Of a stretch of DNA of 64,000 nucleotides, positions 7,906 to 61,580 are shown in pieces (the first letter of the stretch is position 1; every line of letters begins with the position of its first letter). The notes beneath the pieces were generated by a model, which did no database searches, was not told the DNA's origin, and saw only the letters and a program-made list of their open reading frames with translations. A program made the translations under genes and the position numbers. Origin of the DNA: Escherichia phage CMS-2020a; sequence record CP053388.1, one strand, 5' to 3'.

Positions 7906-8337
7906 TCAACGGGGAGTAATAAAGCGTTCAGAGCCTAATCGCTCTAATTCAACGATGGCCATCTTTGACGCCTGAACGATCATGTCTCGGCGATGCGAAA
8001 AGGCGGCGACAGCATGTTTGTATATGTCTGCGATGTGCCGTGCTTCATCCAACTTCTGCCGTTTAGACAGATACTGTGGGTTTGTTTTAACCTTAGCGTC
8101 CAGTACAGATTCGTTGAACTTAATGCCGTTCATACTCAAGTTCTTACGCTCTGTGTCGTATAGCTTTGCTTCAACAGCTTCAAGGTTAAGTTTTGCCTCT
8201 GCGACACTTCTTTCTGCATGAGCGAGTTTTGAGCCATACTCCATTAAAAGGCGGGGTTGTCTACGCCAGACTTCCTCCAGATTGTCTCGGTCAAACTCGA
8301 GATCAGACATTATTTTCTCGTAAATATCGGTGATCAT
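7906..8337 (-). CDS. hypothetical protein (143 aa), coiled-coil
   Basis: ORF between DnaE and SSB genes. Confidence 0.45.
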   Translation of the reverse strand: MITDIYEKIMSDLEFDRDNLEEVWRRQPRLLMEYGSKLAHAERSVAEAKLNLEAVEAKLYDTERKNLSMNGIKFNESVLDAKVKTNPQYLSKRQKLDEARHIADIYKHAVAAFSHRRDMIVQASKMAIVELERLGSERFITPR

Positions 8338-8431
8338 GTGCTTTCCTTTTTACTTATCATCTTATATTGATTATATCATTGTGATGATAAGGCAAGGAGT
8401 TCGAGGATAGGGGATATGAGGGGATAAGAGA

Positions 8432-8456
8432 AAACATGGCCATAGAGGCCATGTTT
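8432..8456 (-). terminator. hairpin AAACATGGCC-N5-GGCCATGTTT followed by T-rich tract
   Basis: 10-bp perfect stem directly after DnaE stop. Confidence 0.5.
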
Positions 8457-8462
8457 ATGGGA

Positions 8463-11400
8463 TCACGTCTTAATGGTTTCTGCTACGTCGGCTAATATCG
8501 CTTCTAGTCGTTCTCCCTCTTCAGGTCTGAAGTAAAGAATGTTGGGGTTAAACCCGTAAAAGACAGTAACGTCAAGGTCTGGAAGATACTCCTTCCTGCC
8601 GACCAAATCGGATGGCTTGTTTTTGTTGTTAAACAATGCCGTTGCCCGGCTACCACACGTCAGCACATAGGTCGGGCGCACCAGATTGATCTCTTCACGC
8701 ATAAAGTCGGTGAACTGGCCGATCTCGTCTTTGGTGTAGTCCTTTTCTTTGTCTTTCACCTTTTTGCAAACGCCTGTGACATAGAGATCGCCCATGCGCA
8801 AATCCCCAGCCGTCAACAGCTTGGCCTTAAAATCGTCGTATCCGTTCTCCATAAAGTAACCGGTTCGAGCATCATTGCCGTTCGCATTGTCCAGAATGAT
8901 CATGATTTTCGGCTTAATACCAATGCTGGGGCGGATTAGTTCATCACCTAAGCCCATTTCAGCCGCCATCCGCGTCATGAGTACGTTAATCTCAGCCGAA
9001 CGTTTGGGGTTCATCTCAAACGGACGTGAGGCTTTAACTGCGTCTATGACAAGGTCTCCCATCAATTCAGCCTGGTCGCGTAGGCGCTCTGGATCAGTTG
9101 CTGGCAGACTACCTGGCTCGATGGATGCAAACGCCCCTACTTTTTGCAGCGATTCGCGCACTCGACTATTACAGGCACGTTTCTCGACAGCTTCTTCGAA
9201 TTGCGCCAGTGACTCGAATTTGCCGCCAACTTTTTCTCGCGCTCTCATGATGGCTTGGCAGCCATTCTCAGAACACCCCTTCACAGCAGAGAAGGGCGCA
9301 TACAGCACCTGGCTGCCATCTTCAAGCGTGCGGATCTCGATTCGGTTAGATGACACGTTAACGTCTGGTGGCAATACGCGAATGCCATAGGTCAGCGCAT
9401 CCTTAACCAGCCCCTGGTGCTTATCCTCGCCCAGAATGGTGAGCGCAGCAGCGAAGAACTCAGCAGGGTAATGTGTCTTTAACCACATAGACTGATAGCT
9501 GATTAAAGAATAAGCAACACTGTGTGATTTGTTGAAGGCATATCCACCGAACTTCTCAAAGGCGTCCCATATTTCTTGGGCTTTTTCCTTACTGAGACCT
9601 TCCTGTTCAGAGACGATCTCCACGTAGTCTATGCCGTCACTAATAGCCTCGCTGTAGCTTCTACGCTTACCGTCTGAGCAATCCAGTTTTGCGTGTTTGT
9701 GAACCTCTACAGTACCTCCATTTTTGAGTGACAGTGTCACCCAGCCTGCTTGTGCTCGTTCTACAAAATCGCTGCCGATCGCTTTCATCTTATCCATGTT
9801 CTTTTTACCGATAGCGGAACGCAGAGCGTCTGCTTCGGCCATAGAGAACCCGGCAAGTACTCGGGAACTTTGCATGATTTGTTCCTGATAGAGCAAAACA
9901 CCATTAGTCTCCCGGGTGACTTCCTCAAGACGCGGATGAATTGAATGTGGAGCCATGAAGCCTTTGGCCACGGACACATAATCGTCCAACATGCCGGATT
10001 GAATCGGGCCAGGTCGGAAGAGCGCAGTCGTAGCAACAACCGTTTTAAAGCTCATTGGCTCAATTCCACCACCTAAATCTTTAAGCAGCTTGCGCATTGG
10101 GCCTGATTCAAGCTGGAAAACACCTTGAGTGTACCCAGCAGCAAAACCATCCAGCACCTTGCGATCTTCAAGAGAAATGGCATCAAGATTGATATCTTCA
10201 CCTGTGTTCTCTTTTATGTAGCGTTTTGCACTATCGAGCAAATCGAGAGTTGCCAGACCGAGTACGTCCAGCTTAATTAGGCCCATAGCCTCGCAGTAAC
10301 GCTTGTCAAATGCGATACAACGCGCGTCACCACGGCGTTCAACCGGTGTACGTTCTGTCAGAGGAACACCTGCTACGATCATCCCTGCCGCATGTCTACC
10401 AAAGCCACGCATAAGGCTTTGTAACTTGCAGGCTGCATTGAATGCATCAGGATATTTTGTTGCGTATTTGTCGAGACTTGCCAGTTGTTCGCGCAGCTCC
10501 TCCAATGGAAGGCTATCATCCTCGACGTTCTTCAGCTCTTTTGATACCGCCATATCTGCGGACTCCACACCATAAATACGAGCGGTATCACGTAGTGCAG
10601 AGGCTGCGCCCAGGTAGGTGAAGTTCGGAATGCCTGCAACGTAATCTTCGCCGTAGCGTTCATTCAGATACTCGATCACCTCATGGCGACGTGCCTGGCT
10701 GAAGTCCAAGTCCGCATCCGGCAAGTCGAGACGCTCAGGGTTGATGAAACGCTCAAACAGAAGACCGTGACGGATTGGGTCGACGTTGGTTATGCCTATG
10801 CACCACGCCACCAGAGAACCGGCAGAGGAACCACGACCAGGCCCAACGGGAATGCCAGTTTCACGACTATGATTCATCAGATCGCGCACCATCAGGAAGT
10901 AACCACAGAATCCCAGGCGAGTCAGCGTGTCCATTTCGTACTTTAGCCGCTCAACATAAACCCTGTTCTCAGAAGCAGGTGGTGTGTAGCCAAACTCTTT
11001 TGTGGTAAGACGTTTACGCAGCCCTGCAACAGCCAGTTTCATCAGCGTTGCAGGCTCGTCGTCTGCCATCTTTGGCAGTGCTGGCGGCAATTCATGCCAG
11101 CGCCATGTGCAGGCATCGATAATGGTATCCTGCGTTGTTGAGGCCATTGCAGCTGTTACCGGCACATCCATGCGAACGGAGAAGGCTTTAAGCGCCTCAA
11201 GGAGATGGCGGCGACCATTGACGGCGTTATCTCGCTGGTGGGGGATACGCAGACGATGCGGCTGGTCGATTTTTATGTTGTTCGTAACCATGTGCGCAAT
11301 GTCTTTAATGTCTGCATCGTCGATCGATTCGTAATAAGCGGGATAGAACGCCACTGGCTCTATTTTCAATGCGCTGGCGACTTTCATCGCCCGGACGTTA

Positions 11401-11969
11401 ATCTGGTCGTAGAATGGGGTAGGGTGCGGATAGACCACACTATAGAAGTTGTCTTTTCCACCCGCTGTAATCAGTGTGCTTATGATTTTTGCAAAATCGT
11501 TGCGTTGGAACACGCTACCGATGTCGGAAGTAAGCAGGATGATGTTGCCTTTGGCATATGTAGAAACCAACTGTTCGAGCGAGAGACGCGGTACAAAGTA
11601 GAACTGTTCTCGTGTGTTGGCCGCCGTCATTAGTTCGCAGATGTCGCGATATCCTTTCTCATTTTTAATTAGAGCGGTAAACGAGTAGTTACGTCCTCGC
11701 TCTAATGATTCCATACATCTCATAGATTCTTTAGCAAGTTTAGCCCGGTGCTCGTATGTGGGATCATCAACAATGTTTAGTTTCACACCACAAATAACCG
11801 CCATGTCGTCACCAGCGGCACGTTGTAGTGGAATAACGCTCGCAATATTCATGCTATCTGCTGAAATTACAGCGGTGTAGCCAGCTTCTCTGGCAATCTT
11901 CACCGCGTTTTCTGCTTTTAGAGCCGACTCCCCAAGTGAGAAGTCAGTTCGAACCATCAGTGCCTTCAT
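8463..11969 (-). CDS. dnaE: DNA polymerase III alpha subunit (DnaE-type, PHP domain N-terminus)
   Basis: 1168 aa; PHP-like N-terminus, conserved polymerase core segments such as GLIKLDVLGL and NKSHSVAYS. Confidence 0.85.
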   Translation of the reverse strand: MKALMVRTDFSLGESALKAENAVKIAREAGYTAVISADSMNIASVIPLQRAAGDDMAVICGVKLNIVDDPTYEHRAKLAKESMRCMESLERGRNYSFTALIKNEKGYRDICELMTAANTREQFYFVPRLSLEQLVSTYAKGNIILLTSDIGSVFQRNDFAKIISTLITAGGKDNFYSVVYPHPTPFYDQINVRAMKVASALKIEPVAFYPAYYESIDDADIKDIAHMVTNNIKIDQPHRLRIPHQRDNAVNGRRHLLEALKAFSVRMDVPVTAAMASTTQDTIIDACTWRWHELPPALPKMADDEPATLMKLAVAGLRKRLTTKEFGYTPPASENRVYVERLKYEMDTLTRLGFCGYFLMVRDLMNHSRETGIPVGPGRGSSAGSLVAWCIGITNVDPIRHGLLFERFINPERLDLPDADLDFSQARRHEVIEYLNERYGEDYVAGIPNFTYLGAASALRDTARIYGVESADMAVSKELKNVEDDSLPLEELREQLASLDKYATKYPDAFNAACKLQSLMRGFGRHAAGMIVAGVPLTERTPVERRGDARCIAFDKRYCEAMGLIKLDVLGLATLDLLDSAKRYIKENTGEDINLDAISLEDRKVLDGFAAGYTQGVFQLESGPMRKLLKDLGGGIEPMSFKTVVATTALFRPGPIQSGMLDDYVSVAKGFMAPHSIHPRLEEVTRETNGVLLYQEQIMQSSRVLAGFSMAEADALRSAIGKKNMDKMKAIGSDFVERAQAGWVTLSLKNGGTVEVHKHAKLDCSDGKRRSYSEAISDGIDYVEIVSEQEGLSKEKAQEIWDAFEKFGGYAFNKSHSVAYSLISYQSMWLKTHYPAEFFAAALTILGEDKHQGLVKDALTYGIRVLPPDVNVSSNRIEIRTLEDGSQVLYAPFSAVKGCSENGCQAIMRAREKVGGKFESLAQFEEAVEKRACNSRVRESLQKVGAFASIEPGSLPATDPERLRDQAELMGDLVIDAVKASRPFEMNPKRSAEINVLMTRMAAEMGLGDELIRPSIGIKPKIMIILDNANGNDARTGYFMENGYDDFKAKLLTAGDLRMGDLYVTGVCKKVKDKEKDYTKDEIGQFTDFMREEINLVRPTYVLTCGSRATALFNNKNKPSDLVGRKEYLPDLDVTVFYGFNPNILYFRPEEGERLEAILADVAETIKT

Positions 11970-12149: not shown

Positions 12150-13385
12150 TTAACCAAATATTTTTTGAACAACTTCACGAGCCGCTTGTGCAGAAGCTGA
12201 AGGGAGTTTGTTAATGAAAGAACGCTCAATACCTGTCACAAAGTCGCCTCGCATCATTCCAATCTTGGCCGACAACAAAAGTTCACGAGGGCCAATTGGC
12301 TGACTAATGAGGTGTTCTTCGTATCCATCGCGAACGATACCGGCAAACTTAACCATCTTTTCAGCGTATTCATCCACGATGCCTGCATTTGTCAGCATGT
12401 TGATCTCTGCGTCTTTGCTCATGTATTTCACATTCGAAACGATGCCAAAACGCGAAAAGTTCGCGGCGTTCTGGATGTTTGTACCCTGGTACAAGCCGGT
12501 TTCATCACCAGATCCGTTCGTGTTGCCAGTGCCAATGAAAGCAAACCGTTCATGCGGAGTAATGCGACGCCATTCTGGAGTTGCCTCTTTGATGACCAAC
12601 GCTTCACCTTCCAGCACTGGCTGATACACGCCAAGAATTTGTGGAAACGCAAAGTCGTATTCATCCGCGAGGTAAACCCAGCCATGCTTCATTGCGAGCG
12701 CAAGCAAGCCAGGTTCGAAATACGTAGAGCCATCACGCGCCAGAATTTGCCCCGTAACATGTGCCTCTTCCATTGATGCTGTATGTTGGGCACGGATCAA
12801 CGGACGATTGAGCAAAGCACATAGCTGTGTAGGCAATGACGATTTGCCTGTTCCTGCATGACCCCACAAATAGCCAGGTATGCCAAGTTCAAGCATCATG
12901 AAAATATCTTTGATCAGTTCGAAGTCGCCATATACGTAGCCTTTCTTCACTTCGGGAACGAACTCTGGATACGGCGTATTGACGTTGACGCTAACCATGA
13001 GCGGCGTCCCACGTTTTGTTCCGAGTTCTTCCACCGTTACGTTTAGCAGTTCGTGAGCTGCGACCAGATCTGTCTTGTACTCAACTGTGCCTGTGTAGCC
13101 AGGGCTACTGGTCAAGCCAGAAGATTTGGCCATTTCGCTTTTTTGCTCGGCACGTTTAGCTTGAATTGCATCAAGTGCCTTTTTCGATAGCGTTGGTTCA
13201 TCTGGAAACTGCGTTGTGTACATTTTCAGTACGGTGTCAGGATCGGCATCTTTTACTGACTCAGGAATGCCCTCGCAATTACCATTGGCTACATGGGACT
13301 TAAAATAGTGAAATGATTTGCCGCACCACTTGCAAACAAGGTAATCAGAAGGATTTTTTTCATTTTGCAGTGCAGTAGTCGTCAT
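12150..13385 (-). CDS. AAA+ ATPase, CobS/MoxR-like
   Basis: Walker A GHAGTGKSS, Walker B VYLADEYD, paired with downstream VWA protein. Confidence 0.65.
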   Translation of the reverse strand: MTTTALQNEKNPSDYLVCKWCGKSFHYFKSHVANGNCEGIPESVKDADPDTVLKMYTTQFPDEPTLSKKALDAIQAKRAEQKSEMAKSSGLTSSPGYTGTVEYKTDLVAAHELLNVTVEELGTKRGTPLMVSVNVNTPYPEFVPEVKKGYVYGDFELIKDIFMMLELGIPGYLWGHAGTGKSSLPTQLCALLNRPLIRAQHTASMEEAHVTGQILARDGSTYFEPGLLALAMKHGWVYLADEYDFAFPQILGVYQPVLEGEALVIKEATPEWRRITPHERFAFIGTGNTNGSGDETGLYQGTNIQNAANFSRFGIVSNVKYMSKDAEINMLTNAGIVDEYAEKMVKFAGIVRDGYEEHLISQPIGPRELLLSAKIGMMRGDFVTGIERSFINKLPSASAQAAREVVQKIFG

Positions 13386-13480: not shown

Positions 13481-15589
13481 TCACTTTAAAATGATACGAG
13501 ATAGTTCAGTAACTACAGATGAACCAAGACTATCAACGCTCGTTACCAGGGCATGATTTGAGTAAAATCTCTCCGGTGCGTCAGTCATGATGCCAATTGC
13601 CATCAAATCAATATCAGTCTGCGTTTCAATTTGCTTCGCAACTGAACGCAAATGAGCGTCAAAACCTCTCCCAACAGCCCACGGCGCGCCATCACTCAGA
13701 ACAAGCATGATCTTCCTGTCCTCCAAGCGACCGGAAAATAACGATGCAAGGCTGGCTATGCTTTCACCATCCACGTTATTAAGAAGTGGGAATGTGTAGC
13801 CTACGCACCCCATACGTGAGCGAACTTCGCGAGAATTTACCTTTTCATTCCAATTTTTGATGATAGGTAGCATTAAAGATTCAAAGCGAGAGAACTCATA
13901 CTTGACAGCCTTAAGTTCTCCTGCCGCCATATGACTACCAAATGTAGTGAAGCCGGTGATAATGTTGGGAACATTTATTCGATCAAGGGCATCGGCGATG
14001 GTATATGCACTTGCAAGAGCCAATTGTATCGTTATACCACTCATTGAACCTGATAAATCAATCACTTGTTGAACACAGGCGTTAACGGCTTTAGATTCTT
14101 CTTTTTTACGAAACACGCGAGCATCATTCATTGCTAATCTGTAGATACTAGAACCATGAATGTGCCCCCGACGCTGGCCCGGTATAAACTGAACTCTGTT
14201 TCTGCTTGCTATTGCTCGCTCCAGGTCTTTTGCCAGCGTCGACGAAACACCTGACGAAAGATGCTTTTCAATATATTTGTCGAAGAGCTGGTTGCCTTCA
14301 GGAACGATGCGATAGCGGCTGATTGGATATCCTCCCAAATCAATATCGGAGAATGTTTTAATAAGCCGTTTGATATGGGCTTCTGCCTGATCAATCGAGC
14401 CGATGAAGTCGTATGAGCGATTGTATGGCCTGTATTCGCTTTTCGAGCTTTCTGTTAACTCGCTTTTAATCGTTTCGGATAGCGCATCTTCTGTCATGCC
14501 TCCGACTTCATCTTCCATGCTATCCAACTCCTCTAAAGCCTCTTCCAGACTCATTTTTGACGGAGTTGGGATATCTGAAGAGCCGTCTTCTGTCGTTTTT
14601 CTTTTTTCGTGGTCAGCGGTTAATGATTCTGACGCCGCGTTATCAGAAGCATCAGAATCTGATACCTCTTTATCATTTTCTGTATCATCGAATATTGTTT
14701 CTGATGATTCAGAATTATCTGAATCATCACTGTCGTTATTATCATGTTTGTGCTTACTATGTGATTCTGATTCGATAGATTTGTGATTATCTAACACTGA
14801 GGGTGTCTCATGATCTTCGTTGTCTTCACTGTTTTCTCCAGAGGCATCCGTCTGGTCAGCGTCTGAAGGATCGGAAGTTTTTCCCGGAGCTGACTCCTTA
14901 CCTTTGCTTTCACTTTCAGTGTCTTTGAGGATCTTAGCTATGGTCGCAGCCACCTTTACACAATCCTCGGTGCAAGACATGTTACGCACGGCCACATCGA
15001 TACCATGTTCTTTTAATAATGAAATTGGTTTCTCAATGACAGGCCAATATTCATCCATGAAATCTACGAACGGTGCTTGGCCATCCCAGGCTCTTACAAC
15101 CGGACAGAGAAAGAAGTTTAGAAAAAGCGCGCGCTGATCTTTGCCACAATAAGCAATAGCCTCTGAAGCCTTTGGTTTAAAGACTTTTTCGATTATAAGG
15201 CGCTGAGTTGCCATCAGATTACGTCTTGTTCCGTTAAAGACCTCACCCATTTTTCGCTCGATGAACACGTCTTCTAAGGCATTCCATAGCGACCAGGAAG
15301 GAACGCGTCCTTTTTCTCTCATTTTGTTGGACACACGAATATCGGTAAACAAAATGTGAGCAACTTCATGATCGAGAAATCCGCGCACAGCATTCATCAA
15401 TGCCGGTGTTGCGTTATCCGGGATTGATGGGATGTTTACGAGAATTGGATCTCCATCATCGTTATAGCGTACATAAGCGTCGTCCCCTCGTTCTGCAACA
15501 GGGATGTTTTTACCTGAAAGGAGAGCGACTACTCGTTTTACACTGTCACGGAAGTCCTGAACCTCTTTGATGGAACGTTTTTTAGACAT
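13481..15589 (-). CDS. von Willebrand factor A (VWA) domain protein, CobT-like, with long acidic Ser/Asp/Glu-rich linker
   Basis: C-terminal VWA/MIDAS-like segment DLSGSMSG; long acidic low-complexity region; partner of AAA+ ATPase. Confidence 0.6.
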   Translation of the reverse strand: MSKKRSIKEVQDFRDSVKRVVALLSGKNIPVAERGDDAYVRYNDDGDPILVNIPSIPDNATPALMNAVRGFLDHEVAHILFTDIRVSNKMREKGRVPSWSLWNALEDVFIERKMGEVFNGTRRNLMATQRLIIEKVFKPKASEAIAYCGKDQRALFLNFFLCPVVRAWDGQAPFVDFMDEYWPVIEKPISLLKEHGIDVAVRNMSCTEDCVKVAATIAKILKDTESESKGKESAPGKTSDPSDADQTDASGENSEDNEDHETPSVLDNHKSIESESHSKHKHDNNDSDDSDNSESSETIFDDTENDKEVSDSDASDNAASESLTADHEKRKTTEDGSSDIPTPSKMSLEEALEELDSMEDEVGGMTEDALSETIKSELTESSKSEYRPYNRSYDFIGSIDQAEAHIKRLIKTFSDIDLGGYPISRYRIVPEGNQLFDKYIEKHLSSGVSSTLAKDLERAIASRNRVQFIPGQRRGHIHGSSIYRLAMNDARVFRKKEESKAVNACVQQVIDLSGSMSGITIQLALASAYTIADALDRINVPNIITGFTTFGSHMAAGELKAVKYEFSRFESLMLPIIKNWNEKVNSREVRSRMGCVGYTFPLLNNVDGESIASLASLFSGRLEDRKIMLVLSDGAPWAVGRGFDAHLRSVAKQIETQTDIDLMAIGIMTDAPERFYSNHALVTSVDSLGSSVVTELSRIILK

Positions 15590-15687
15590 GGCTAATCCTT
15601 TGTTATGAAAACAAATTATTTACTAGTGTGTTTAATGTAGCACTGCGCGAACAGGGAACTAAGCCATTCGCGCAGGGAGAAGAGGGG

Positions 15688-15900
15688 TTAACAGATTCTG
15701 ACGGCTAAAGACCCGGAGCCGGTATTGAGAAGCGTGAAGCGTTTGTTGTTAAATTCGAATATAAAGCCAGTTGTGTCATTCACACCAACCTGAATCTGCT
15801 CATTCGGTAGATCGGTGAGGATGTCAGCTACACACTCATCAGCTAATTTCTGTACGTGTCCGATCTCAAGAGCGATTAGGCTGGAAATAGTGGTGTTCAT
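15688..15900 (-). CDS. hypothetical protein (70 aa), first gene of leftward early operon
   Basis: ORF adjacent to AT-rich divergent promoter region 15900-16150. Confidence 0.35.
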   Translation of the reverse strand: MNTTISSLIALEIGHVQKLADECVADILTDLPNEQIQVGVNDTTGFIFEFNNKRFTLLNTGSGSLAVRIC

Positions 15901-16151
15901 TCAATCAATCCATTCTAACTTATACTATGGTAAGGAATACTACTAAAATTTATATCAATACTGAATACATTCATATCATATACAAGTTAATTTTCTTACC
16001 TGTTTTGGGCTAATTTTTCTCCGTGCAATGGCCTTTAACCGGTCTTTTAAGTGCCTATCGAAAAAAATGATAATAGCTTTACAACCCTAACCTTTGATGT
16101 AATATCGGTAAGCACTTACCAGTGAGAATTGAACGCGCAAAGGTTGTAACA

Positions 16152-16538
16152 ATGTCTGACAACAAGATTGAATTTATAGAAAGTCGCTATGCTGCTTTTA
16201 TCGCAGGGCTGATTGAATCCTCACCTATGAGTCAGGCCCAAATAGCCAGACTTATTGGTTATAAAAATGCCAACAACCTTTCTTTAATTAAAAGTGGCAA
16301 AATTCCATTGCCTATCGATAAGGTTCGTCCGTTGGCGCTGGCGCTGGGTATTGAGCCAAGTCGTCTTATGATGATGGTGCTGGAAGAACGCCAACCTGAA
16401 CTCGCAGCATTTTTATACAAAGAAGGCACCGCTCCTCTTAACGAGGACGAAAAACAGGTTCTTGCTGCATATAACGAGCGATTCGGTAAAGAGAAAGGCG
16501 CATCACAAAAGGTTGTTGAGGCTATAAAGTCTCTATGA
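16152..16538 (+). CDS. XRE-family helix-turn-helix transcriptional regulator (candidate repressor)
   Basis: HTH segment SQAQIARLIGYKNANNLSLIKSGK; start placed at ATG 16152 with AAGG RBS (track ORF starts at GTG 16122). Confidence 0.65.
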   Translation: MSDNKIEFIESRYAAFIAGLIESSPMSQAQIARLIGYKNANNLSLIKSGKIPLPIDKVRPLALALGIEPSRLMMMVLEERQPELAAFLYKEGTAPLNEDEKQVLAAYNERFGKEKGASQKVVEAIKSL

Positions 16539-17636
16539 AAAATTTACACGAATAAGCTCTGTTGATAGACGATCTCCCTTGAATTTGTGGTCAATTTCGT
16601 CTAAATCCGGTTGCTCTACAATTGATGCGATGTACGTCGAGAAACTTTCTAAGGCGTCTCGCATCTCGTCCATATAATCGTGCCGGTCGTAGACTCGATC
16701 TATCCCCTCAAGACTGTGGTTCATGATTTTGCGTGATACCTCCTGGCTTATGCCTAATGCTGGGAAGTAACTACGCGCAGTACGGCGCAAGTCTCGGGGT
16801 GTAAATGGCTCAAGCTCCATCAGTTCTGGTCGTTCCAGAATACGACGTAATGCCTGGGCTATTGCCACTTTAGACATAGGAAGGTCTTTCCCGATTTTTT
16901 TATTCGAAGGCACGAGCCACTGGCTGCCTTTACCGTATTCGAACAACTCTTCAATACATGTGCGCATTAATGTGCTTAAAGGCAGCGAATGCTCACGGGC
17001 AGATTTGTTCCTCTTGCCTTGATTCCAAACCCCACGCTTAAGATTGAACTCACTTTTTTTAGCCCGCAGTACTTCGTCAGGTCGTCTTGCGGATACAAGA
17101 CACAGCCTGGCCGCCCATTTTGTACCAGCGCACACATTGAAGTAGTCCCATATATTCCAGAACACCCATACCTCTGCGTCGGTCAGCTTCCGCTCGCGAG
17201 GTGTGGGCTTTGCGCCACCGGCAACTTTGTTTAGTGACATATCGTTTAACGGTGACACGTCTATCATCCCCTGGAAGGCGCACCAGCTAAGGAACTGCTT
17301 CATCAGAGAGAAAACGCGGCGGCCCATAACAATTTTGCCATCCAGTATTAGTGGGTTGACCAGTTGGTTCACCATGAACCTATTAATGTCACTTACTTTT
17401 ACATCGGCAATGTGCGGCAAAACATGTATCAAAATACAATGAACAGCGATCTCTGGCCGACGTCTGGTTATCAGCAGAGATAAGCGAGTGAATAACATGA
17501 ATGCGTCCGAGAATCTCATGTCATTGCTGACCTGGGAGATCATAACGGCCTGCATTTGAGATGCTCTTTCGAGATACTCAATCGCCTCTTTTGAGGTGTT
17601 CTCCGCAGCGCGTGCTCTGTCAAAGCTATTTTTCAT
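16533..17636 (-). CDS. tyrosine site-specific recombinase (integrase/resolvase family)
   Basis: C-terminal R...H-x-x-R...Y pattern (RDLRRTARSYF, NHSLEGIDRVYDRHDY). Confidence 0.65.
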   Translation of the reverse strand: MKNSFDRARAAENTSKEAIEYLERASQMQAVMISQVSNDMRFSDAFMLFTRLSLLITRRRPEIAVHCILIHVLPHIADVKVSDINRFMVNQLVNPLILDGKIVMGRRVFSLMKQFLSWCAFQGMIDVSPLNDMSLNKVAGGAKPTPRERKLTDAEVWVFWNIWDYFNVCAGTKWAARLCLVSARRPDEVLRAKKSEFNLKRGVWNQGKRNKSAREHSLPLSTLMRTCIEELFEYGKGSQWLVPSNKKIGKDLPMSKVAIAQALRRILERPELMELEPFTPRDLRRTARSYFPALGISQEVSRKIMNHSLEGIDRVYDRHDYMDEMRDALESFSTYIASIVEQPDLDEIDHKFKGDRLSTELIRVNFS

Positions 17637-17809
17637 ATGACAATCACCGAGTTACGCCGATTCACTGTATAAGTAAACAGTATATTAGGCATAGATTCTT
17701 ATAGGATCAAGAGTAAAAGTAACTCATTTTCACTAATGATTCCATACATAGTAGGTATGGAATCATTTAAGGGAGGAATTTAAATTCTGAGGCGTTATTA
17801 ATATGATTG

Positions 17810-18220
17810 TTAAGGGTTAGTGAGAGCTTGAAATGCGGCCGCGTAGGCAGCGATATCGACCATAATTTTTGGATCTTTCGCGTACTGATGTGCGTTGTTA
17901 GGGAAGATTGCCAATAGGCTATACACATCTTGGAAATGTGCATGTTGACTGTAAACGAGTGCACGGTCGCTTGTGCAATTGAATCTGCTGCGGCTGCTGG
18001 TTCGTTCTTGCTTCGTGAACAAGAGATGAACGTGATAGACGCGGGAGGACACGATAGCACCAGGAGCCGTATACGGGCCATCTTTGCCGAATATGGCTGG
18101 GTACATGCCTTGTTTAAACGACTTGAAATCGTTGAGTAACGTAATCTCTAAGTCAGGCTTTATATCGAAGGTCGGCTTTAAAAATTGGGCGTAACTATCA
18201 CTGTTCCATGTGATCTTCAT
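17810..18220 (-). CDS. YafO-like toxin candidate
   Basis: motifs RVYHVHLL, FNCTSDRALVYSQHA, LLAIFPNNAH match my recollection of E. coli YafO; recall-based only. Confidence 0.45.
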   Translation of the reverse strand: MKITWNSDSYAQFLKPTFDIKPDLEITLLNDFKSFKQGMYPAIFGKDGPYTAPGAIVSSRVYHVHLLFTKQERTSSRSRFNCTSDRALVYSQHAHFQDVYSLLAIFPNNAHQYAKDPKIMVDIAAYAAAFQALTNP

Positions 18221-18229
18221 CGTTCAACC

Positions 18230-18838
18230 TCAATGGAATGAGAAGTTGGCGAAGACGTCCTCATCAATGAGGCCAGTCTGCGATTCGATGACGTCTACGT
18301 CGTTAAAACACTGATTTAAAATCAATAGCAGATCAGAGATAGCTAAACGATACTCAGTTACAGAATCGCTCAAGCGTTTCAAATATGGATGAGGTTGCTC
18401 AGAGTCGCGAATCAACTTGTTAACGAATCCCTCCAAACCACGAATGGTCAGGTCAACGTTCTTCAGTTCTTCGTAACGACTTTCACCGAAGTTGCTGCGA
18501 ATCTTTTCCGCTTTCCATCCAGAGATGGCATGGGCTAAGCGAACGTGTTTCGCCGTCAATTCTGCGAGCTTGCTTTCAATCTTTGCCAGCTGTGCCGCAT
18601 CGCGGTTTTCTTGAACAGGAATAGCCGCAGTGCTCACATAGGTTTGTGTTTTGAATCCTGTGAATTTCGCAGAGGGCTTCATCGTGCCACGGAAGCGTCG
18701 ATATCCACGCGGTTCAATAAAATCACGCCCAGATTTAGCTGTAGGCTTTGCGTTTGAAAAGCGTGAAGCGTTAGAGGTCACAGTAGCAAGGGCATTGCTA
18801 ATGACACTCATATCTTCTAGGCAATTTTCTAAACGCAT
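18230..18838 (-). CDS. hypothetical protein (202 aa), upstream partner of YafO-like gene
   Basis: ORF 9 bp upstream of toxin candidate on same strand. Confidence 0.45.
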   Translation of the reverse strand: MRLENCLEDMSVISNALATVTSNASRFSNAKPTAKSGRDFIEPRGYRRFRGTMKPSAKFTGFKTQTYVSTAAIPVQENRDAAQLAKIESKLAELTAKHVRLAHAISGWKAEKIRSNFGESRYEELKNVDLTIRGLEGFVNKLIRDSEQPHPYLKRLSDSVTEYRLAISDLLLILNQCFNDVDVIESQTGLIDEDVFANFSFH

Positions 18839-19352: not shown

Positions 19353-20261
19353 ATGATTGGTAAGTTGTCTGATTCTTTGATTGAAAATAAATACAACGAA
19401 TTTAGAGAAGAAATATCTTTACTTTTTGACTATTTAAATCAGATAAATGATACAACAAAGAAAAATATAAAACGTCTTCTTAAAGAAGTGGAGTATGCAC
19501 AGAATCCAGATACTATTATTAATATTAATGAAACTATTAAGATTAAGTGTGGCACAACGTTAGCTCGCCATTTATGTTCAAACCCATATACAGGTTCAAC
19601 ATTAGAGATAGGTAACAGCGCCATTGATTTAGAAGAAAAGATAAGATTGTGTAATACTTTGAAAAATAAACAATATCAGTGGGTTATTACTGAAGCCTAT
19701 GAGTTACTGGAAGACTATATTGAGGCAATATATGTCTATACTGTATGTGTTCGAAATGATTTATGGTCCTCAAGTGATTTTGGTAAGGTTGAAGATGATG
19801 AAATTGGGAAAAGGGAAGTTTATTACAGATTATTAAAAGCAAAAAGTAACCCATCGAAAAAAATAACTAAAATTTTCAGAAATAAAATACCTGGTTTCAA
19901 AGAGATAGAAACAAACAACAAGATTGGCAAAAACTATCGCTTTAACATCAAGCTAATTGAACTACTAAGACATACAATAGTACACAATAGTGGACGATTC
20001 AATGATACAGAAAAATTTATAAATAAGGTTTTAGATGAATCTGAAATAAACGGTAAGAAAAGAGTTATTGGAGAAAGAGCTGTTAGAAGTTACATTACTA
20101 AAGTGCAAGAAGATGATATTGTGATGCTCTTAGAAAGACCATCTGAAATTTTAGGTTCTTTTGGTGGGTATTTTAACAGAGCAAAATTTTTACTAAGTGA
20201 TATTTTAGAATACTCACTAATCATTAAAGAAGAACTAAAATCATATCTAGGCAATCATTAA
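19353..20261 (+). CDS. AT-rich foreign gene; HEPN-motif protein, possible Abi-like abortive-infection/defence protein
   Basis: GC content visibly far below neighbours; own AT-rich upstream region and terminator; RHTIVH fits Rx4-6H HEPN motif. Confidence 0.5.
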   Translation: MIGKLSDSLIENKYNEFREEISLLFDYLNQINDTTKKNIKRLLKEVEYAQNPDTIININETIKIKCGTTLARHLCSNPYTGSTLEIGNSAIDLEEKIRLCNTLKNKQYQWVITEAYELLEDYIEAIYVYTVCVRNDLWSSSDFGKVEDDEIGKREVYYRLLKAKSNPSKKITKIFRNKIPGFKEIETNNKIGKNYRFNIKLIELLRHTIVHNSGRFNDTEKFINKVLDESEINGKKRVIGERAVRSYITKVQEDDIVMLLERPSEILGSFGGYFNRAKFLLSDILEYSLIIKEELKSYLGNH

Positions 20262-20439: not shown

Positions 20440-20526
20440 TGGCGGAGAGTAATGGAATCGAACCATCATCGCTTGCGCAATGGGACGGTTTTCAAGACCG
20501 CTTGAGCACCATGCTCCCTACTCTCC
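20440..20526 (-). tRNA. tRNA-Ser (anticodon TGA), type II with long variable arm
   Basis: hand-folded: acceptor GGAGAGT/ACTCTCC, anticodon loop CTTGAAA, T-loop TTCGATT, encoded CCA; D-arm somewhat atypical. Confidence 0.55.
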
Positions 20527-20750
20527 GGCCGTTGTGGTGGCCGGTACTGAATCTCCGGCATACGGTGCAGCCAATTAGGACTACGGACGATCACCGCTCG
20601 CGAAAGGGAAGATTTGCGGCCGCATTTCCCTAACACCCAAGAAAGCTATCGCATCAGTCTGCGAATCCACCACAACGGTAAGATCACTACCTTTCGACCA
20701 GTCATTGTGCACATGAACGACGATTAACCGTAATGATCTTATCGTTGTAT

Positions 20751-20826
20751 TGGTGCCGGTTAACGGACTCGAACCGCTGACATCCTGCTTACAAGGCAGG
20801 CGCTCTACCAACTGAGCTAAACCGGC
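20751..20826 (-). tRNA. tRNA-Thr (anticodon TGT)
   Basis: hand-folded cloverleaf: acceptor GCCGGTT/AACCGGC, D-stem GCTC/GAGC, anticodon loop CTTGTAA, T-loop TTCGAGT, CCA encoded. Confidence 0.8.
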
Positions 20827-20830
20827 AATT

Positions 20831-20917
20831 TGGTGGGGAGTGATGGAGTCGAACCACCCGAGTCGCCATGACAGTAGATTTACAGTCTACACCGCTACCT
20901 CTACGGACTAACTCCCC
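20831..20917 (-). tRNA. tRNA-Tyr (anticodon GTA), type II
   Basis: acceptor GGGGAGT/ACTCCCC, anticodon stem-loop GTAGA-CTGTAAA-TCTAC, long variable arm, T-loop TTCGACT, CCA encoded. Confidence 0.7.
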
Positions 20918-20922
20918 TAAAT

Positions 20923-20997
20923 TGGCGATGGTGGGTGGATTCGAACCACCGACCAGTTGGTTAACAGCCAACTGCTCTACCGCTGAGCTACACCATC
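20923..20997 (-). tRNA. tRNA-Asn (anticodon GTT)
   Basis: clean cloverleaf: acceptor GATGGTG/CACCATC, D-stem GCTC/GAGC, anticodon loop CTGTTAA, T-arm GGTGG-TTCGAAT-CCACC, CCA encoded. Confidence 0.85.
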
Positions 20998-21775
20998 AAT
21001 TCGGCACTGCCAGTATTTATTACTCAACAGTGCCAATCGCGACGGTTTAGTTTCTGCCAGGAAACGCACCGCTACTTGCACTTTTCGTTAGTGCCAGACG
21101 CTTTCGACTTCGCTCAATAGTAGAAGGCAAAATCTTTAAGTAGATGATGTTTCTGAGGACAGCACCTACTTTGTTATTTATACAATGTAATGTATGGAAT
21201 CATTTGTTGTGAAAACAGGCACCAATGGCAACAGTGGTTAAACCTACACAACAATCCTGTCTTCACAACGTTGAGGCCACTACTCCGATTGAATGTTTGC
21301 CCAACATGTTACATATCAACGCTCGCCGGTATCTCTGTGAATAGAACCTTAGAATTGATAAAAATGTAATGGCCTCAACGTTGTGTGCTGGCTAACCATA
21401 CCAGCCGGGCTACGTCGCCGCTTTTTAACCCAGTATAAACGACATAATTGAACAAAATGACGTAACAGGATGGGCGGTCAGTGGCTAAGAATCCGGGAGT
21501 CATATGGAGTTGAAAATATACCGACCGCCCATTCTGTTACTTCATCGGAGGGAACACTCATGTTCCCTCCTGCGTTCTGCAATCACACTCGCTCAGTGTG
21601 TCCCATTTCGGTAACGAGGCTGGAAACTGACCTCGCTGGTGTTTGGCTTATTAGGCTACTGCCAGATAGACTTCTTCGTTTGCACTTGTATTTAAGTTCA
21701 AACAGTCGCGTCTCAACGAAAACAAAGTCATCTTATACATAAAAGATAAGTAAGTAAATACTTATCTTTGTGTTT

Positions 21776-22066: not shown

Positions 22067-22215
22067 TTTATAACCTTTGTTTCATGAACTACCCGATACA
22101 CGCGCTTTCCGATGCACAGTGTTTTGCTTTTAAGTTCCTGCTTAATTAAATCACGACAGATGCCGAAGCCGATAAGGAAGCCACCCATAAAAGCTAATGA
22201 GATGTATGGAATCAT
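22063..22215 (-). CDS. small membrane protein (50 aa), not in supplied ORF track
   Basis: hand-translated MIPYISLAFMGGFLIGFGICRDLIK...; ATGA overlaps with both neighbours. Confidence 0.3.
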   Translation of the reverse strand: MIPYISLAFMGGFLIGFGICRDLIKQELKSKTLCIGKRVYRVVHETKVIK

Positions 22216-22427
22216 TTTAACACTCCTGATTCTACTAATTGCTGTAGCAATACTTTCCCTTTATCAGTTAACTGGTAGTTGGCCGAGCACCACGTTTCAG
22301 AAACGTTTGCAACCAACCCTAACCGCTCTAACTTAGCTCGCGTTTTAGGCTTCCAGTACTCAGGGAACTCCGGCCACTTACTGATTTCATGAAGCGTTTC
22401 CTTCTCCCGCTTACTTAATACGATCAT
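22212..22427 (-). CDS. hypothetical protein (71 aa)
   Basis: ORF translationally coupled in chain of small genes. Confidence 0.4.
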   Translation of the reverse strand: MIVLSKREKETLHEISKWPEFPEYWKPKTRAKLERLGLVANVSETWCSANYQLTDKGKVLLQQLVESGVLK

Positions 22428-28805: not shown

Positions 28806-28860
28806 CCTGCTTCCGTATATATTTAATAAGTTACTTATTATTTATATATACAGAAGCAGG
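28806..28860. repeat. 55-bp near-perfect palindrome, copy 1 (identical to 61526..61580)
   Basis: CCTGCTTCCGTATATATTTAATAAGTTACTTATTATTTATATATACAGAAGCAGG read at both loci. Confidence 0.9.
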
Positions 28861-29739: not shown

Positions 29740-29791
29740 AGCTGACACTGTAGTTATGCATTGGCGCAATGTACGCGCCAATGCATGATTT

Positions 29792-30151
29792 TTAACCTTT
29801 CTTCATCAACTCTCGTTTGATTTCATCGGTACGCATCGTGACATCGGCAGCGGTGATCGCCTCATTCAATTTCACGATGTCCTCGATTTCCTGCGGTGAC
29901 TTCTCTGCCAGATGGAAAATGGCTGCTCGAATCACGTCAGAACGAGTGAACTTCTCGAAGCGAGGGATGAACTTCATCATCTCCAGCAGTTCGAAGTATT
30001 CGTCCTCCAGTGACATTGTGCGGCTTTTAATTTTCTCTTTGCCACGAGTCGGGCGTCCCTGTGGTCTGACTGGTTGGCGCAAAGGAGTTGTGTTCTTAGC
30101 CGGTGCATCAGGCTCTTTGCGCTTTGCTAGGTCACCCATTTTCATGGACAT
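29792..30151 (-). CDS. ribbon-helix-helix centromere-binding protein (ParG-like small partition protein)
   Basis: 119 aa, basic N-terminal tail, RHH-like segment MSLEDEYFELLE; start overlaps parA stop. Confidence 0.5.
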   Translation of the reverse strand: MSMKMGDLAKRKEPDAPAKNTTPLRQPVRPQGRPTRGKEKIKSRTMSLEDEYFELLEMMKFIPRFEKFTRSDVIRAAIFHLAEKSPQEIEDIVKLNEAITAADVTMRTDEIKRELMKKG

Positions 30152-61525: not shown

Positions 61526-61580
61526 CCTGCTTCCGTATATATTTAATAAGTTACTTATTATTTATATATACAGAAGCAGG
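61526..61580. repeat. 55-bp near-perfect palindrome, copy 2 (identical to 28806..28860)
   Basis: exact 55-bp match read in sequence. Confidence 0.9.

Follow-up and report, generated by a model that had tools for sequence, protein, structure and literature searches.

The tyrosine recombinase gene of an SSU5/pHCM2-type phage-plasmid appears, on comparative evidence, to be paired with a recombination site of its own, a perfect 33-bp palindrome lying 98 bp upstream of its start codon, and a LexA box overlaps the predicted promoter between the two. Together with a neighboring XRE-family regulator, these elements most likely form a conserved maintenance and control module in three parts: a divergent switch, a recombinase with its site, and a link to the SOS response. 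The explanation as a whole, an SOS-controlled plasmid-dimer resolution module with an XRE divergent switch alongside, is one that we consider moderately probable. The DNA analyzed is a 64,000-nt stretch (the window; CP053388.1, Escherichia phage CMS-2020a) that represents a segment of such a phage-plasmid and is 99.5% identical to ~110-kb non-mobilizable E. coli plasmids and 97% identical to the phage-plasmid Cyrano. The module is conventional in kind, while the predicted recombinase-site pair and the LexA box are new with respect to the literature that we searched: no paper there described an SSU5 recombinase site or a LexA box at this locus, and full-text searches with the sequences of the arm and the operator turned up nothing beyond unrelated primers and the like.

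The recombinase gene (16533-17636, minus strand, 367 aa) converges on the XRE gene (16152-16538, plus strand, 128 aa). Their 3′ ends had been described in the first-pass annotation as overlapping by a few bases, and indeed they share 6 bp with interlocked stop codons: the XRE gene ends in CTA TGA (16533-16538) and the recombinase TAG is the reverse complement of positions 16533-16535. The neighboring leftward operon is headed by a 70-aa ORF (15688-15900, minus strand; phrog_2627, E = 3e-40), followed in the ORF list by a CobT-like gene (13481-15589), an AAA/CobS-like gene (12150-13385) and a DnaE gene (8463-11969). Homologs of the 70-aa ORF hold the same position in all relatives, a 34-kb Photorhabdus plasmid included, and the tail-to-tail order of the recombinase and XRE genes beside this small ORF and cobT is kept down to 44% recombinase identity, so the layout is not due to chance. 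An Rfam search of the 11-24 kb interval found four tRNAs only.

The recombinase has core-binding and catalytic domains (PF22022 and PF00589), the PF00589 match scoring 39.4 bits (E = 7e-10) against a curated cut-off of 27.1. Across 43 homologs, R185, R284 and Y316 are invariant and K211 and H307 are at least 90% conserved, while the HxxR motif begins with R281 in place of histidine. Its AlphaFold2 model (pLDDT 86) has lambda Int residues 75-356 as top fold match (E = 8e-8), and matches at probability 1.0 include lambda Int, Tn1549 Int, XerA/XerH and IntI (E = 6.5e-4 for the last); the match to Cre is weak (E ~0.04). By sequence, phmmer against the PDB returned no chain at E up to 1 and NCBIfam gave a weak integrase-domain match only, the nearest sequence families being of the P4/CP4-57 type (NF007246). 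No Pfam match to an arm-binding domain (PF13356 or PF09003) was found in the protein, whose N-terminal 60 residues are predicted to be helical, and PF13356 was seen only in relatives at 34% identity or less. The catalytic residues and the predicted fold suggest a competent enzyme.

No att site had been identifiable in the first-pass annotation, a statement that can now be withdrawn. At 17735-17767, shortly beyond the interval that had been annotated, lies a lox-like 13-7-13 palindrome, AATGATTCCATAC-ATAGTAG-GTATGGAATCATT, which exceeds in length every other perfect inverted repeat of the window with a 4-10 nt spacer and is the predicted core site of the recombinase. In roughly 70 relatives, a palindrome sits some 60-130 bp upstream of the recombinase gene with essentially invariant arms, the Klebsiella site differing at one outer base, and with a variable spacer (at least 8 different spacers). 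The arms read TGATTCCATAC wherever the recombinases are at least 56% identical, whereas homologs of 44-50% identity have TGACTCCAGAC-N7-GTCTGGAGTCA at the corresponding place, with two positions changed in both arms. Arms of the TGACTCCAGAC type were found in Xenorhabdus and Providencia phage-plasmids and a Pantoea-like metagenome contig, and also at loci on Pantoea (508 kb) and Rahnella (723 kb) replicons and an Erwinia contig, where the ~4 kb read on each side held no XRE or phage genes. The Photorhabdus plasmid has an intermediate site with slightly asymmetric arms. Given that the arms co-vary with the recombinase clade, even where no XRE gene is near, the comparative evidence assigns the site to the recombinase. 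Palindromes beside Y-recombinase genes have proved to be active target sites in about half of tested predictions (PMC10250229).

With regard to what the enzyme does, of 5426 complete E. coli genomes 252 carry the recombinase, at 255 places in total, all of them plasmid-borne and none chromosomal. This bears on a check that had been proposed with the first reading, integration versus plasmid state, and agrees with the description of SSU5-type phage-plasmids as extrachromosomal only (PMC9600943). Recombinase homologs also stand alone on replicons of 0.5-0.7 Mb. The earlier doubt that the enzyme is a chromosomal integrase is therefore upheld, and the absence of chromosomal copies, the missing arm-binding domain and the solitary homologs on very large replicons together make a multimer resolvase the best reading. 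Dimer resolution in the manner of Cre/loxP is, judged from sequence comparison, the most likely function. With each arm bound by one recombinase monomer, strand exchange would take place across the 7-bp spacer. As each plasmid copy has one site, a plasmid dimer has two in direct repeat, and recombination between these would restore plasmid monomers. A further role might be the circularization of phage DNA with terminal redundancy, for which P1 uses Cre/loxP.

The recombinase promoter carries what appears to be an SOS control element. We place this promoter at 17682-17710 on the minus strand, with a -35 of TTGATC (17710-17705), a 17-nt spacer and a -10 of TAATAT (17687-17682); it has 8 of 12 consensus matches, which is below our scan threshold, and its hexamers are largely conserved in the alignment, with variants in Buttiauxella and the L050 lineage. 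A LexA box, CACTGTATAAGTAAACAGTA (17663-17682), abuts the -10 and spans the predicted start site. It is the sole CTGT-N8-ACAG in the window, agrees with the consensus at 16 of 20 positions and scores 22.1 bits with a LexA matrix built from known boxes, compared with 12.2 for the next site and a median of 20.3 for genuine boxes. The CTG-N10-CAG frame is kept in 8/8 aligned SSU5-clade lineages while the inner bases vary, and the box is absent in lineages L076, L082 and L083 and in the large-replicon homologs. Such a conserved box at the recombinase -10 would tie the convergent gene pair to the SOS response, and from its overlap with the promoter LexA would be expected to repress the recombinase gene in unstressed lysogens, DNA damage switching the gene on. 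Ciprofloxacin induces Cyrano 39-fold (PMC9928086). In published Cyrano data that are possibly not strand-specific, recombinase RNA rises 26-fold (log2 5.6 in LB to 10.3 in the macrophage at 6 h), a rise that is partly present in medium alone; the authors of these data call the macrophage environment SOS-inducing. We saw no convincing terminator between the converging genes, and given their interlocked stops, derepressed recombinase transcription may run antisense through the XRE gene towards the leftward operon, which is a speculative step. SOS control is unusual for a resolvase.

Upstream of the XRE gene, the intergenic region at 15901-16151 had been likened to a repressor/early-promoter switch, and this part of the first-pass account holds, while the LexA box at the recombinase promoter had escaped it. 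The region is AT-rich as claimed, with a GC content of 0.327 against 0.47 for the window (15900-16150 falls in the lowest 1.5% of 251-bp windows), and it contains conserved blocks in a multi-lineage alignment. A consensus promoter scan of the region performed at chance level (3 sites found, 5.1 expected), so our promoter calls rest on conservation instead. The sigma-70 promoter of the XRE gene, TTTACA-16 nt-TAATAT (16078-16105, plus strand), matches the consensus at 9 of 12 positions, and neither hexamer varies among 8 lineages with flanks that are ~66% identical. An operator-like palindrome, ATCGGTAAGCACTTACCAGT (16104-16123), covers the predicted XRE start site, and its core, GGTAAGCACTTACC (16108-16121), is nearly invariant over the aligned lineages, a single central position varying between C and T. 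For the leftward operon, we tentatively propose an extended -10 at 15949-15957 on the minus strand (TGATATAAA; TGATACAAT in relatives), read from the alignment and missed by the scan, with a half-operator-like GGTAAG element at 15929-15934 just downstream of it. These features, together with the predicted lambda-repressor-like HTH fold of the XRE protein and the transcription of its ortholog in a lysogen, indicate that the divergent control region is real.

The palindrome at the XRE promoter belongs to a dispersed 20-bp family, ATAGGTAAGTACTTACCTAT, of which the window has 11 copies at 4 or fewer mismatches, compared with none in shuffled sequence. Many of the dispersed palindromes sit where co-directional genes are separated by a short gap, in some cases precisely between a -35 and a -10, and distant modules have related TAAGTA/TACTTA sites in the corresponding intergenic region. 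Their binder may be the XRE protein or another factor. The XRE ORF is listed as 16122-16538, and the start conserved in all homologs is the ATG at 16152. The protein matches Pfam HTH_19 weakly (18.9 bits, below the 30.2 cut-off) and phrog_8 with E = 7e-12; a PDB sequence search gave no match. Its AlphaFold2 model (pLDDT 78) shows a five-helix HTH followed by C-terminal helices, and its Foldseek neighbors, at probability 1.0 but E ~1e-2, are C.BclI, C.AhdI, the N-terminal part of Stl, phage SPC32H Rep and HigA. It has no S24 peptidase domain and is probably a non-cleavable repressor. The XRE ortholog CYRAN_45 is transcribed ~10-fold over background in an LF82 lysogen (PMC9928086). We infer that the XRE protein probably binds the dispersed palindromes, represses its own gene and the leftward operon (70-aa ORF, cobT, cobS and dnaE), and serves as lysogeny repressor. 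In the searches that we ran, the XRE family was met only beside this recombinase. The trio of XRE gene, recombinase gene and small ORF also occurs on the 34-kb Photorhabdus plasmid, which is too small for an SSU5-like phage, so the XRE protein may instead be a local regulator and not the master lysogeny repressor. The 70-aa ORF may be a Cro-like or anti-repressor counterpart to the XRE gene; RNA of its ortholog CYRAN_46 goes from log2 4.3 in LB to 10.8 in the macrophage at 6 h.

Apart from the palindrome, a 16-nt arm motif, AATGATTCCATACATC, occurs singly at three places. One copy (11704-11719, plus strand) lies inside the dnaE coding region, antisense to the gene, and its 16 nt are invariant in 7 lineages across five synonymous positions, where background identity is ~83%. 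A second (21189-21204, minus strand) lies upstream of the tRNA cluster at a distance of ~195 bp, and the E. coli, Klebsiella and L050 clades all retain it. A third (22201-22216, minus strand) overlaps the start codon of an ORF for a small membrane protein (MIPYIS...). The dnaE copy and the third copy have 20 bp in common in inverted orientation. A plain resolution system leaves these three conserved copies unexplained, and another protein may recognize the motif. We tried the single copies as attL/attR hybrids or inversion scars and rejected this, as their orientation and spacer logic do not fit and their spacers differ both from that of the palindrome and between clades. In a check of whether the single copies co-vary with the alternative arm type, none was found within 10 kb on either side in the Xenorhabdus and Providencia phage-plasmids, which speaks neither for nor against binding by the recombinase.

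The single copies bear on two rival readings. In one, a transcription factor (the XRE protein or some other protein of the phage-plasmid) would use the palindrome and the single copies as operators, much like the dispersed C1 operators of P1, and the recombinase would have nothing to do with them. The conserved extra loci, including the invariant one inside dnaE, favor it, as does the position of the palindrome ~25 bp upstream of the recombinase -35, where a regulator could act. We nevertheless regard it as unlikely: the palindrome accompanies the recombinase at loci with no XRE or phage genes in the ~4 kb read to each side and its arms change with the recombinase clade, the motif is limited to four loci in 112 kb that all lie within ~11 kb of the recombinase gene, the XRE promoter has a separate palindrome family, and 13-bp arms with a 7-bp spacer would suit tyrosine recombinases better than HTH dimers. 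The second reading returns to the first-pass suggestion of a multimer resolvase or invertase, of which the resolvase half is our best reading and the invertase half finds no support. The inverted 20 identical bases shared by the copies at 11704 (plus) and 22216 (minus) could suggest an invertase or shufflon-type enzyme that turns over the DNA lying between an inverted partner and either the palindrome or one of the single copies, an arrangement that recalls the one-armed sfx sites of Rci. Against this, when an 821-bp query spanning the dnaE copy, the only candidate inverted partner, was compared with 463 related plasmids, 456 of them covered 80% or more of it in a single aligned place. No inverted arrangement was thus seen, and on this ground we rejected inversion between these two copies. 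Inversion would moreover cut dnaE, the spacers of the two copies differ in Klebsiella, single-copy spacers never equal that of the palindrome, and the 111,928-bp plasmid pEcFELIX526.1 has one full site. An invertase is barely credible on these data. It is also highly improbable that the palindrome is a mere RNA hairpin or terminator stopping cargo transcription before the recombinase promoter. It does lie between the 3′ end of a YafO gene (17810) and that promoter, and many relatives have plus-strand T runs 6-20 nt away; the stem, however, is AT-rich (4/13 G+C), the minus strand, in the direction of the incoming genes, has no U tract after the palindrome, and a terminator scan gave no call, for which reasons we rejected this reading. 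The arms are also invariant with no free compensatory change, the same two positions change with the recombinase clade, and the palindrome is present upstream of the large-replicon homologs with unrelated neighbors.

Two further rivals concern the site as a place of integration. A true integrase, with the palindrome as attP core and integration in some hosts or conditions, would accord with the P4/CP4-57-type integrases as nearest named relatives, with lambda Int as top fold match and with a spacer that equals the lambda overlap in length. It is very unlikely in our view. For E. coli, the 255 plasmid-borne places led us to reject chromosomal integration, and in addition to the extrachromosomal state in the literature and the missing arm-binding domain, no excisionase-like gene was noticed among the nearby ORFs examined, no tRNA gene adjoins the homologs at the loci examined, and the site is perfectly symmetric and intact in all contexts seen, large replicons included. 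The other possibility arises from the cargo side of the palindrome, which holds toxin-antitoxin, abortive-infection, tRNA and resistance genes. In every comparison, the 97-99% match to relatives breaks off exactly at 17767-17769, and close E. coli relatives continue into at least 7 unrelated flanks. An integron-like platform at the palindrome, where the recombinase, once induced by SOS, inserts or swaps DNA circles and so creates the variable cargo, would explain this boundary, and the LexA box on the promoter with a site just upstream mirrors the intI/attI layout. In SSU5-type elements, resistance genes are located close to PhoH and the DNA ligase gene, which is the palindrome side of the recombinase (PMC9600943). 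We consider capture quite unlikely, however. No second full or hybrid site bounds the cargo, no partial site was found at the distal end of the YafO insertion, and the single-copy spacers are incompatible. A semi-conserved flank at 17768-17792 (a G-rich patch followed by a T run or GAAT(T/C)T), possibly an accessory element, persists in diverged form though the cargo beyond it differs; with these 25 bp still recognizably homologous between different cargos, the break is not strictly at the crossover region. Ordinary indels beside a strongly selected element would also give a sharp edge. PADLOC returned nothing on the neighboring cargo genes. The fuller version, in which LexA release, cargo swap or capture at 17735-17767 and antisense transcription through the repressor gene would couple induction to gene exchange, we hold to be equally doubtful, even though it would account for the 97-99% identity of every close relative as far as the outer boundary of the site and for the lack of relationship past it.

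Plasmid-dimer resolution under SOS control, as the preferred reading, has some practical weight. SSU5/pHCM2/pMT1-type phage-plasmids are common in E. coli, as the counts above indicate, and occur in Klebsiella, Salmonella, Enterobacter and Yersinia pestis; ESBL and carbapenemase genes have been recorded on them (PMC9600943), and in the literature that we searched their maintenance and induction circuitry had not been dissected. A recombinase/site pair with natural specificity variants, as predicted here, would explain stable low-copy inheritance, the LexA box would connect the module with the known SOS inducibility, and a candidate operator family is supplied for the repressor. If active without host factors, the pair could serve as an orthogonal genome-engineering tool, unrelated in sequence to Cre and with a 7-bp spacer.

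The module can be compared with several known systems. Lambda Int and the P4/CP4-57-type integrases share with our recombinase the core-binding and catalytic architecture, the top fold match and the nearest sequence families, and the lambda Int overlap region is 7 bp, the spacer length found here. They differ in that our enzyme lacks the PF13356 N-terminal domain, having a predicted helical N-terminus, and has a perfectly symmetric core site, with no chromosomal copies in the complete E. coli genomes. Also comparable are XerCD at cer/psi, ResD/rfsF of F and Rsd/crs of the Salmonella virulence plasmid, in which tyrosine recombinases carry out plasmid multimer resolution, likewise with one site per replicon beside the recombinase gene. 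Here too the replicons are large, low-copy and non-mobilizable, and homologs stand alone on replicons of 0.5-0.7 Mb. We recognized no accessory-protein sites and claim no relationship in sequence with those systems; to our knowledge, SOS control is not a feature of any of them. Cyrano is present at 5.5 copies per cell (PMC9928086).

On the regulatory side, the module resembles integrons, in that a LexA box overlaps the promoter of a tyrosine recombinase gene, the site lies directly upstream of it, and the variable cargo begins there. The intI gene is itself under LexA control. The two differ in that IntI is a distant fold match and the site here is a duplex palindrome, and no attC-like sites, cassette boundaries or second site at the cargo edges were found. 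In the Tum system of phage 186 and the Rep/Ant systems of Gifsy and SPC32H, non-cleavable phage repressors are inactivated by way of LexA-controlled functions. Our module similarly has a small putative HTH repressor lacking S24, in an SOS-inducible element with a LexA box on a neighboring promoter, and the SPC32H repressor is among the fold neighbors of the XRE protein; in our case, the gene predicted to be under LexA control encodes the recombinase and converges on the putative repressor gene, and no anti-repressor gene was identified. As with the C1 operators of P1, an operator-like repeat is dispersed here along a phage-plasmid, one copy lying at the promoter of the candidate repressor itself, although the C1 operators are an asymmetric 17-mer and the repeat here is a 20-bp palindrome.

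Close parallels are also Cre/loxP of P1 and the Cre-type pairs Dre/rox and Vika/vox. Our element is a phage-plasmid like P1 with one simple tyrosine recombinase lacking an arm-binding domain and a single palindromic site with 13-bp arms beside the gene, and the expected role is dimer resolution and possibly circularization. Finding the target site as a palindrome beside the recombinase gene is a validated approach (PMC10250229; PMC7969092). The differences are that sequence similarity to Cre is not detectable and the fold match is weak compared with that to lambda Int, that the spacer is 7 bp compared with 8 bp in loxP, that R281 replaces the first HxxR histidine, and that a LexA box lies on the promoter. 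Our recombinase may act like Cre while not being of the Cre clade.

Among perfect inverted repeats with a short spacer, the longest in the window is a 13-7-13 palindrome (AATGATTCCATAC-ATAGTAG-GTATGGAATCATT) at 17735-17767, 98 bp upstream of the start codon of the tyrosine recombinase gene, which we take as the predicted recombination site. The first-pass annotation had stated that no att site was identifiable, a statement that did not hold up: the palindrome lies just beyond the region described there. Elsewhere, predicting the target as a palindrome beside the gene has been right in about half of the experimentally tested cases (PMC10250229). Across about 70 loci from viral contigs and genomes, whose recombinases are mostly 85-100% identical to that of the window, the arms were essentially invariant and the 7-bp spacer took at least eight forms, certain of which are exact reverse complements of others. 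The one relative in this set with 56% identity retains the inner 11-12 bp of each arm.

Among the homologs of 44-50% identity whose contexts were fetched, every gene has, 50-130 bp upstream, a perfect palindrome built to the same plan. The arms of these palindromes read TGACTCCAGAC, with two positions altered in both arms alike. Such sites are present in Xenorhabdus and Providencia phage-plasmids and also by solitary recombinase genes on a 508-kb Pantoea replicon, a 723-kb Rahnella replicon, an Erwinia contig and a Pantoea-like metagenome contig, where neither an XRE gene nor phage genes were found within 3-4 kb to either side. The site of a Photorhabdus plasmid is slightly asymmetric and intermediate between the two arm types. 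Since the arm change tracks the recombinase clade, including loci that lack the XRE gene, the predicted site travels and co-varies with the recombinase rather than with the regulator, which is the main result of this analysis.

The region 15600-17800 is 98-99.5% identical to non-mobilizable E. coli plasmids of about 110 kb. Identity is 97% with Escherichia phage Cyrano, the SSU5-like phage-plasmid carried by strain LF82, and about 74% with Klebsiella phage-plasmids. Given these matches, and the phage structural, replication, partition and toxin-antitoxin genes of the full relative pEcFELIX526.1 (111,928 bp), the locus lies in an SSU5/pHCM2-type phage-plasmid. The order of site, recombinase, convergent XRE gene, small ORF and cobT is retained with recombinases merely 44-60% identical. 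On the Photorhabdus plasmid (CP177137.1, 33.8 kb, Rep_3/ParA) the recombinase, the convergent XRE gene and the small ORF also occur as a trio, together with the slightly asymmetric site; this plasmid is too small for a full SSU5-like phage, so the module extends beyond phage-plasmids.

In the ORF map, a 70-aa ORF on the minus strand (15688-15900) opens a leftward string of CobT-like, AAA/CobS-like and DnaE genes, and the XRE-type gene runs rightward from a conserved ATG at 16152 to a stop at 16538. The 367-aa recombinase gene (16533-17636, minus strand) converges on it, the two stop codons being interlocked. The first-pass annotation described a 3' overlap of a few bases and an AT-rich region between the leftward operon and the XRE gene, and both were confirmed: the overlap is 6 bp, and the GC content of 15900-16150 is 0.327 against 0.47 for the window, within the lowest 1.5% of windows that size. 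In an alignment of this control region from eight lineages (mean intergenic identity 66%), the plus-strand XRE promoter TTTACA-16-TAATAT (16078-16105) is invariant, and the palindrome GGTAAGCACTTACC directly past its -10 (16108-16121) is nearly so, one central base differing between lineages. The best candidate for the leftward promoter, read off the alignment rather than called by any tool, is a minus-strand extended -10 block (TGATATAAA here, TGATACAAT in other lineages); a generic promoter scan of the control region, which also picked out the XRE promoter, yielded matches at chance level.

The XRE protein matches phrog_8 and, weakly, HTH_19. In its predicted structure, C-terminal helices follow a five-helix HTH, and the fold neighbors are R-M controller proteins, the N-terminal part of Stl, the SPC32H repressor and HigA. 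It has no S24 domain. The recognition segment is nearly invariant, and within the searches run the family was found nowhere but beside this recombinase. RNA of the XRE orthologue in LF82 stands about 10-fold over prophage background. The conserved promoter, the palindrome at the start site, the HTH fold lacking S24 and the transcription in the lysogen thus support the earlier reading of this region as a predicted repressor switch. The occurrence of the trio on a small non-phage plasmid calls for caution in naming the XRE protein a master lysogeny repressor.

A 20-bp family with the consensus ATAGGTAAGTACTTACCTAT includes the palindrome at the XRE start site; of this family the window holds 11 copies with at most four mismatches (starting at 2400, 4353, 7873, 16104, 21746, 28702, 33450, 39085, 56082, 57998 and 59505) and shuffled sequences none; the whole plasmid has 36 matches at six or fewer mismatches and 20 at four or fewer. 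The majority sit in short intergenic gaps between co-directional genes, and at least three lie exactly between a -35 (TTGAAA or TAGATA) and a -10 (TATTAT or TATCAT). Related TAAGTA/TACTTA sites were seen in the spacer between the XRE gene and the small ORF of distant modules, including the 34-kb Photorhabdus plasmid. These palindromes look like operators or promoter elements of a putative genome-wide regulon.

The recombinase promoter, between the site and the gene (-35 TTGATC, 17 nt, -10 TAATAT), is well conserved and not identical in every lineage. Immediately past its -10 lies a LexA box (CACTGTATAAGTAAACAGTA, 17663-17682) that matches 16 of 20 consensus positions and contains the single CTGT-N8-ACAG of the window. 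With a matrix compiled from E. coli boxes, this box scored 22.1 bits and the runner-up in 64 kb scored 12.2. One CTGT-N8-ACAG match is expected in the window by chance, and the argument for LexA therefore rests on the position and conservation of the box: CTG-N10-CAG is retained in eight lineages while the inner bases drift. The box was not found at the large-replicon homologs nor in three divergent phage-plasmid clades.

Ciprofloxacin induces Cyrano 39-fold (PMC9928086). In published LF82 RNA-seq data, whose strand-specificity is not established, the log2 values rise from 5.6 to 10.3 for the recombinase and from 4.3 to 10.8 for the 70-aa ORF between LB and 6 h in macrophages, conditions that we assigned from the column names by our own reading. 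The XRE gene peaks earlier, the values also go up in medium alone, and the authors call the macrophage environment SOS-inducing. The ciprofloxacin and macrophage observations agree with SOS control, though not decisively. The convergent layout of the recombinase and XRE genes leaves no space for a terminator between them. We therefore hypothesize that a recombinase transcript released from LexA control could hamper expression of the repressor and continue into the leftward operon. In the full plasmid NZ_CP101923.1, the only other strong LexA box (CACTGTATATACATACAGTA, 86011-86030) lies outside the window, just upstream of a gene for a 130-aa S24-family peptidase (UmuD- or LexA-like) and is a predicted second SOS-wired locus of the element.

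Wherever close relatives were compared, high identity runs as far as 17767-17769 and stops there, at the outer edge of the palindrome; past that edge we observed at least seven unrelated flanks. Such a break would fit integron-like capture of cargo at the palindrome, but a search for a second site bounding any cargo found none, and capture is unlikely. For about 25 bp past the site a loose similarity persists (a T run, then GAAT) regardless of cargo. The window's cargo comprises a YafO-type toxin gene with a 202-aa partner, a glutaredoxin, a low-GC ORF and four tRNAs. Directly beside the site, on the minus strand, 17810-18838 holds the YafO-family gene (PF13957, E=5e-22) preceded by the 202-aa ORF (phrog_13546). 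Besides this plasmid, Klebsiella and some relatives of the 86% clade have the pair, which most close E. coli relatives lack. The 302-aa ORF (19353-20261, plus strand, GC 0.33, phrog_35492) gave no Pfam or PADLOC match and is possibly a defense-type cargo gene; pEcFELIX526.1 has two ORFs at its position, one of them an AbiGi-family gene. The tRNA cluster (Ser-TGA, Thr-TGT, Tyr-GTA, Asn-GTT; 20440-20997, minus strand) varies by relative, Cyrano lacking Tyr and Klebsiella pJN2-26 being annotated with Asn only. Directly past the Cyrano palindrome, CYRAN_43 (8305-8859 of the Cyrano locus) is the top-expressed listed gene of that element in the lysogen, 723-fold over background, so cargo next to the palindrome can evidently be strongly transcribed.

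Extended to AATGATTCCATACATC, the arm motif has single copies at 11704-11719 (plus strand), 21189-21204 and 22201-22216 (both minus strand), and no others were found in 112 kb. The copy at 11704 is antisense inside dnaE; none of its 16 nt, five synonymous positions included, varies among seven lineages, and it has 20 bp in common with the copy at 22201 in inverted orientation. The 86% clade has an additional copy within the recombinase gene itself, and in the TGACTCCAGAC clade no single copies were found within 10 kb. The spacers of these copies never equal that of the palindrome. Their behavior does not fit recombination scars; possibly the recombinase binds them as half-sites, in a regulatory or architectural role. 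A 55-bp sequence is repeated exactly, once near the helicase/partition region (28806-28860) and once near the small terminase region (61526-61580). It forms a long imperfect palindrome (CCTGCTTCCGTATATATTTAATAAGTTACTTATTATTTATATATACAGAAGCAGG), the flanks of its two copies are unrelated, and it is a candidate cis site (centromere, pac or origin). Between convergent genes, adjoining a ParA-like gene (30151-30819), lies a 12-7-12 palindrome, perfect and GC-rich (ATGCATTGGCGC-AATGTAC-GCGCCAATGCAT, 29756-29786), which may be a terminator or partition site.

The recombinase matched the Pfam catalytic domain and, weakly, the core-binding domain; R185, R284 and Y316 do not vary among 43 homologs, and K211 and H307 vary in few. 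Its AF2 model (pLDDT 86), with a helical N-terminal 60 residues, best matched lambda Int residues 75-356, followed by Tn1549 Int, Xer proteins and IntI, with Cre a weak match. The arm-binding domain PF13356 is confined to relatives of at most 34% identity. By sequence and model, this is a lambda/P4-Int-type enzyme that has lost the domain.

Chromosomal integration or plasmid state, a question the first-pass annotation raised, was looked at in 5426 complete E. coli genomes: 252 carry the recombinase, in 255 places, and all 255 are on plasmids. These phage-plasmid types have been reported solely as extrachromosomal elements (PMC9600943). Each plasmid has one full site. In 456 of 463 related plasmids a single aligned place covered at least 80% of an 821-bp query over the sole candidate inverted partner. 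Homologs also occur alone on very large replicons. Taken together, plasmid-only copies, a single site, the uninverted arrangement and solitary homologs leave integration and inversion unsupported. The earlier suggestion of a resolvase or invertase rather than an integrase therefore stands in part: the invertase has no support, and resolution of plasmid multimers is the best explanation for what the recombinase would do. A repressor switch joined to a simple tyrosine recombinase with its own site is a conventional kind of module, uncharacterised so far, and this one stands out by its unusual SOS connection and the clear natural specificity variants of its site. The recombinase could possibly circularise infecting DNA, a reading modeled on Cre/loxP of P1 (PMC7969092); that likeness is in function only, as the window's recombinase is lambda/P4-Int-type by sequence and fold.
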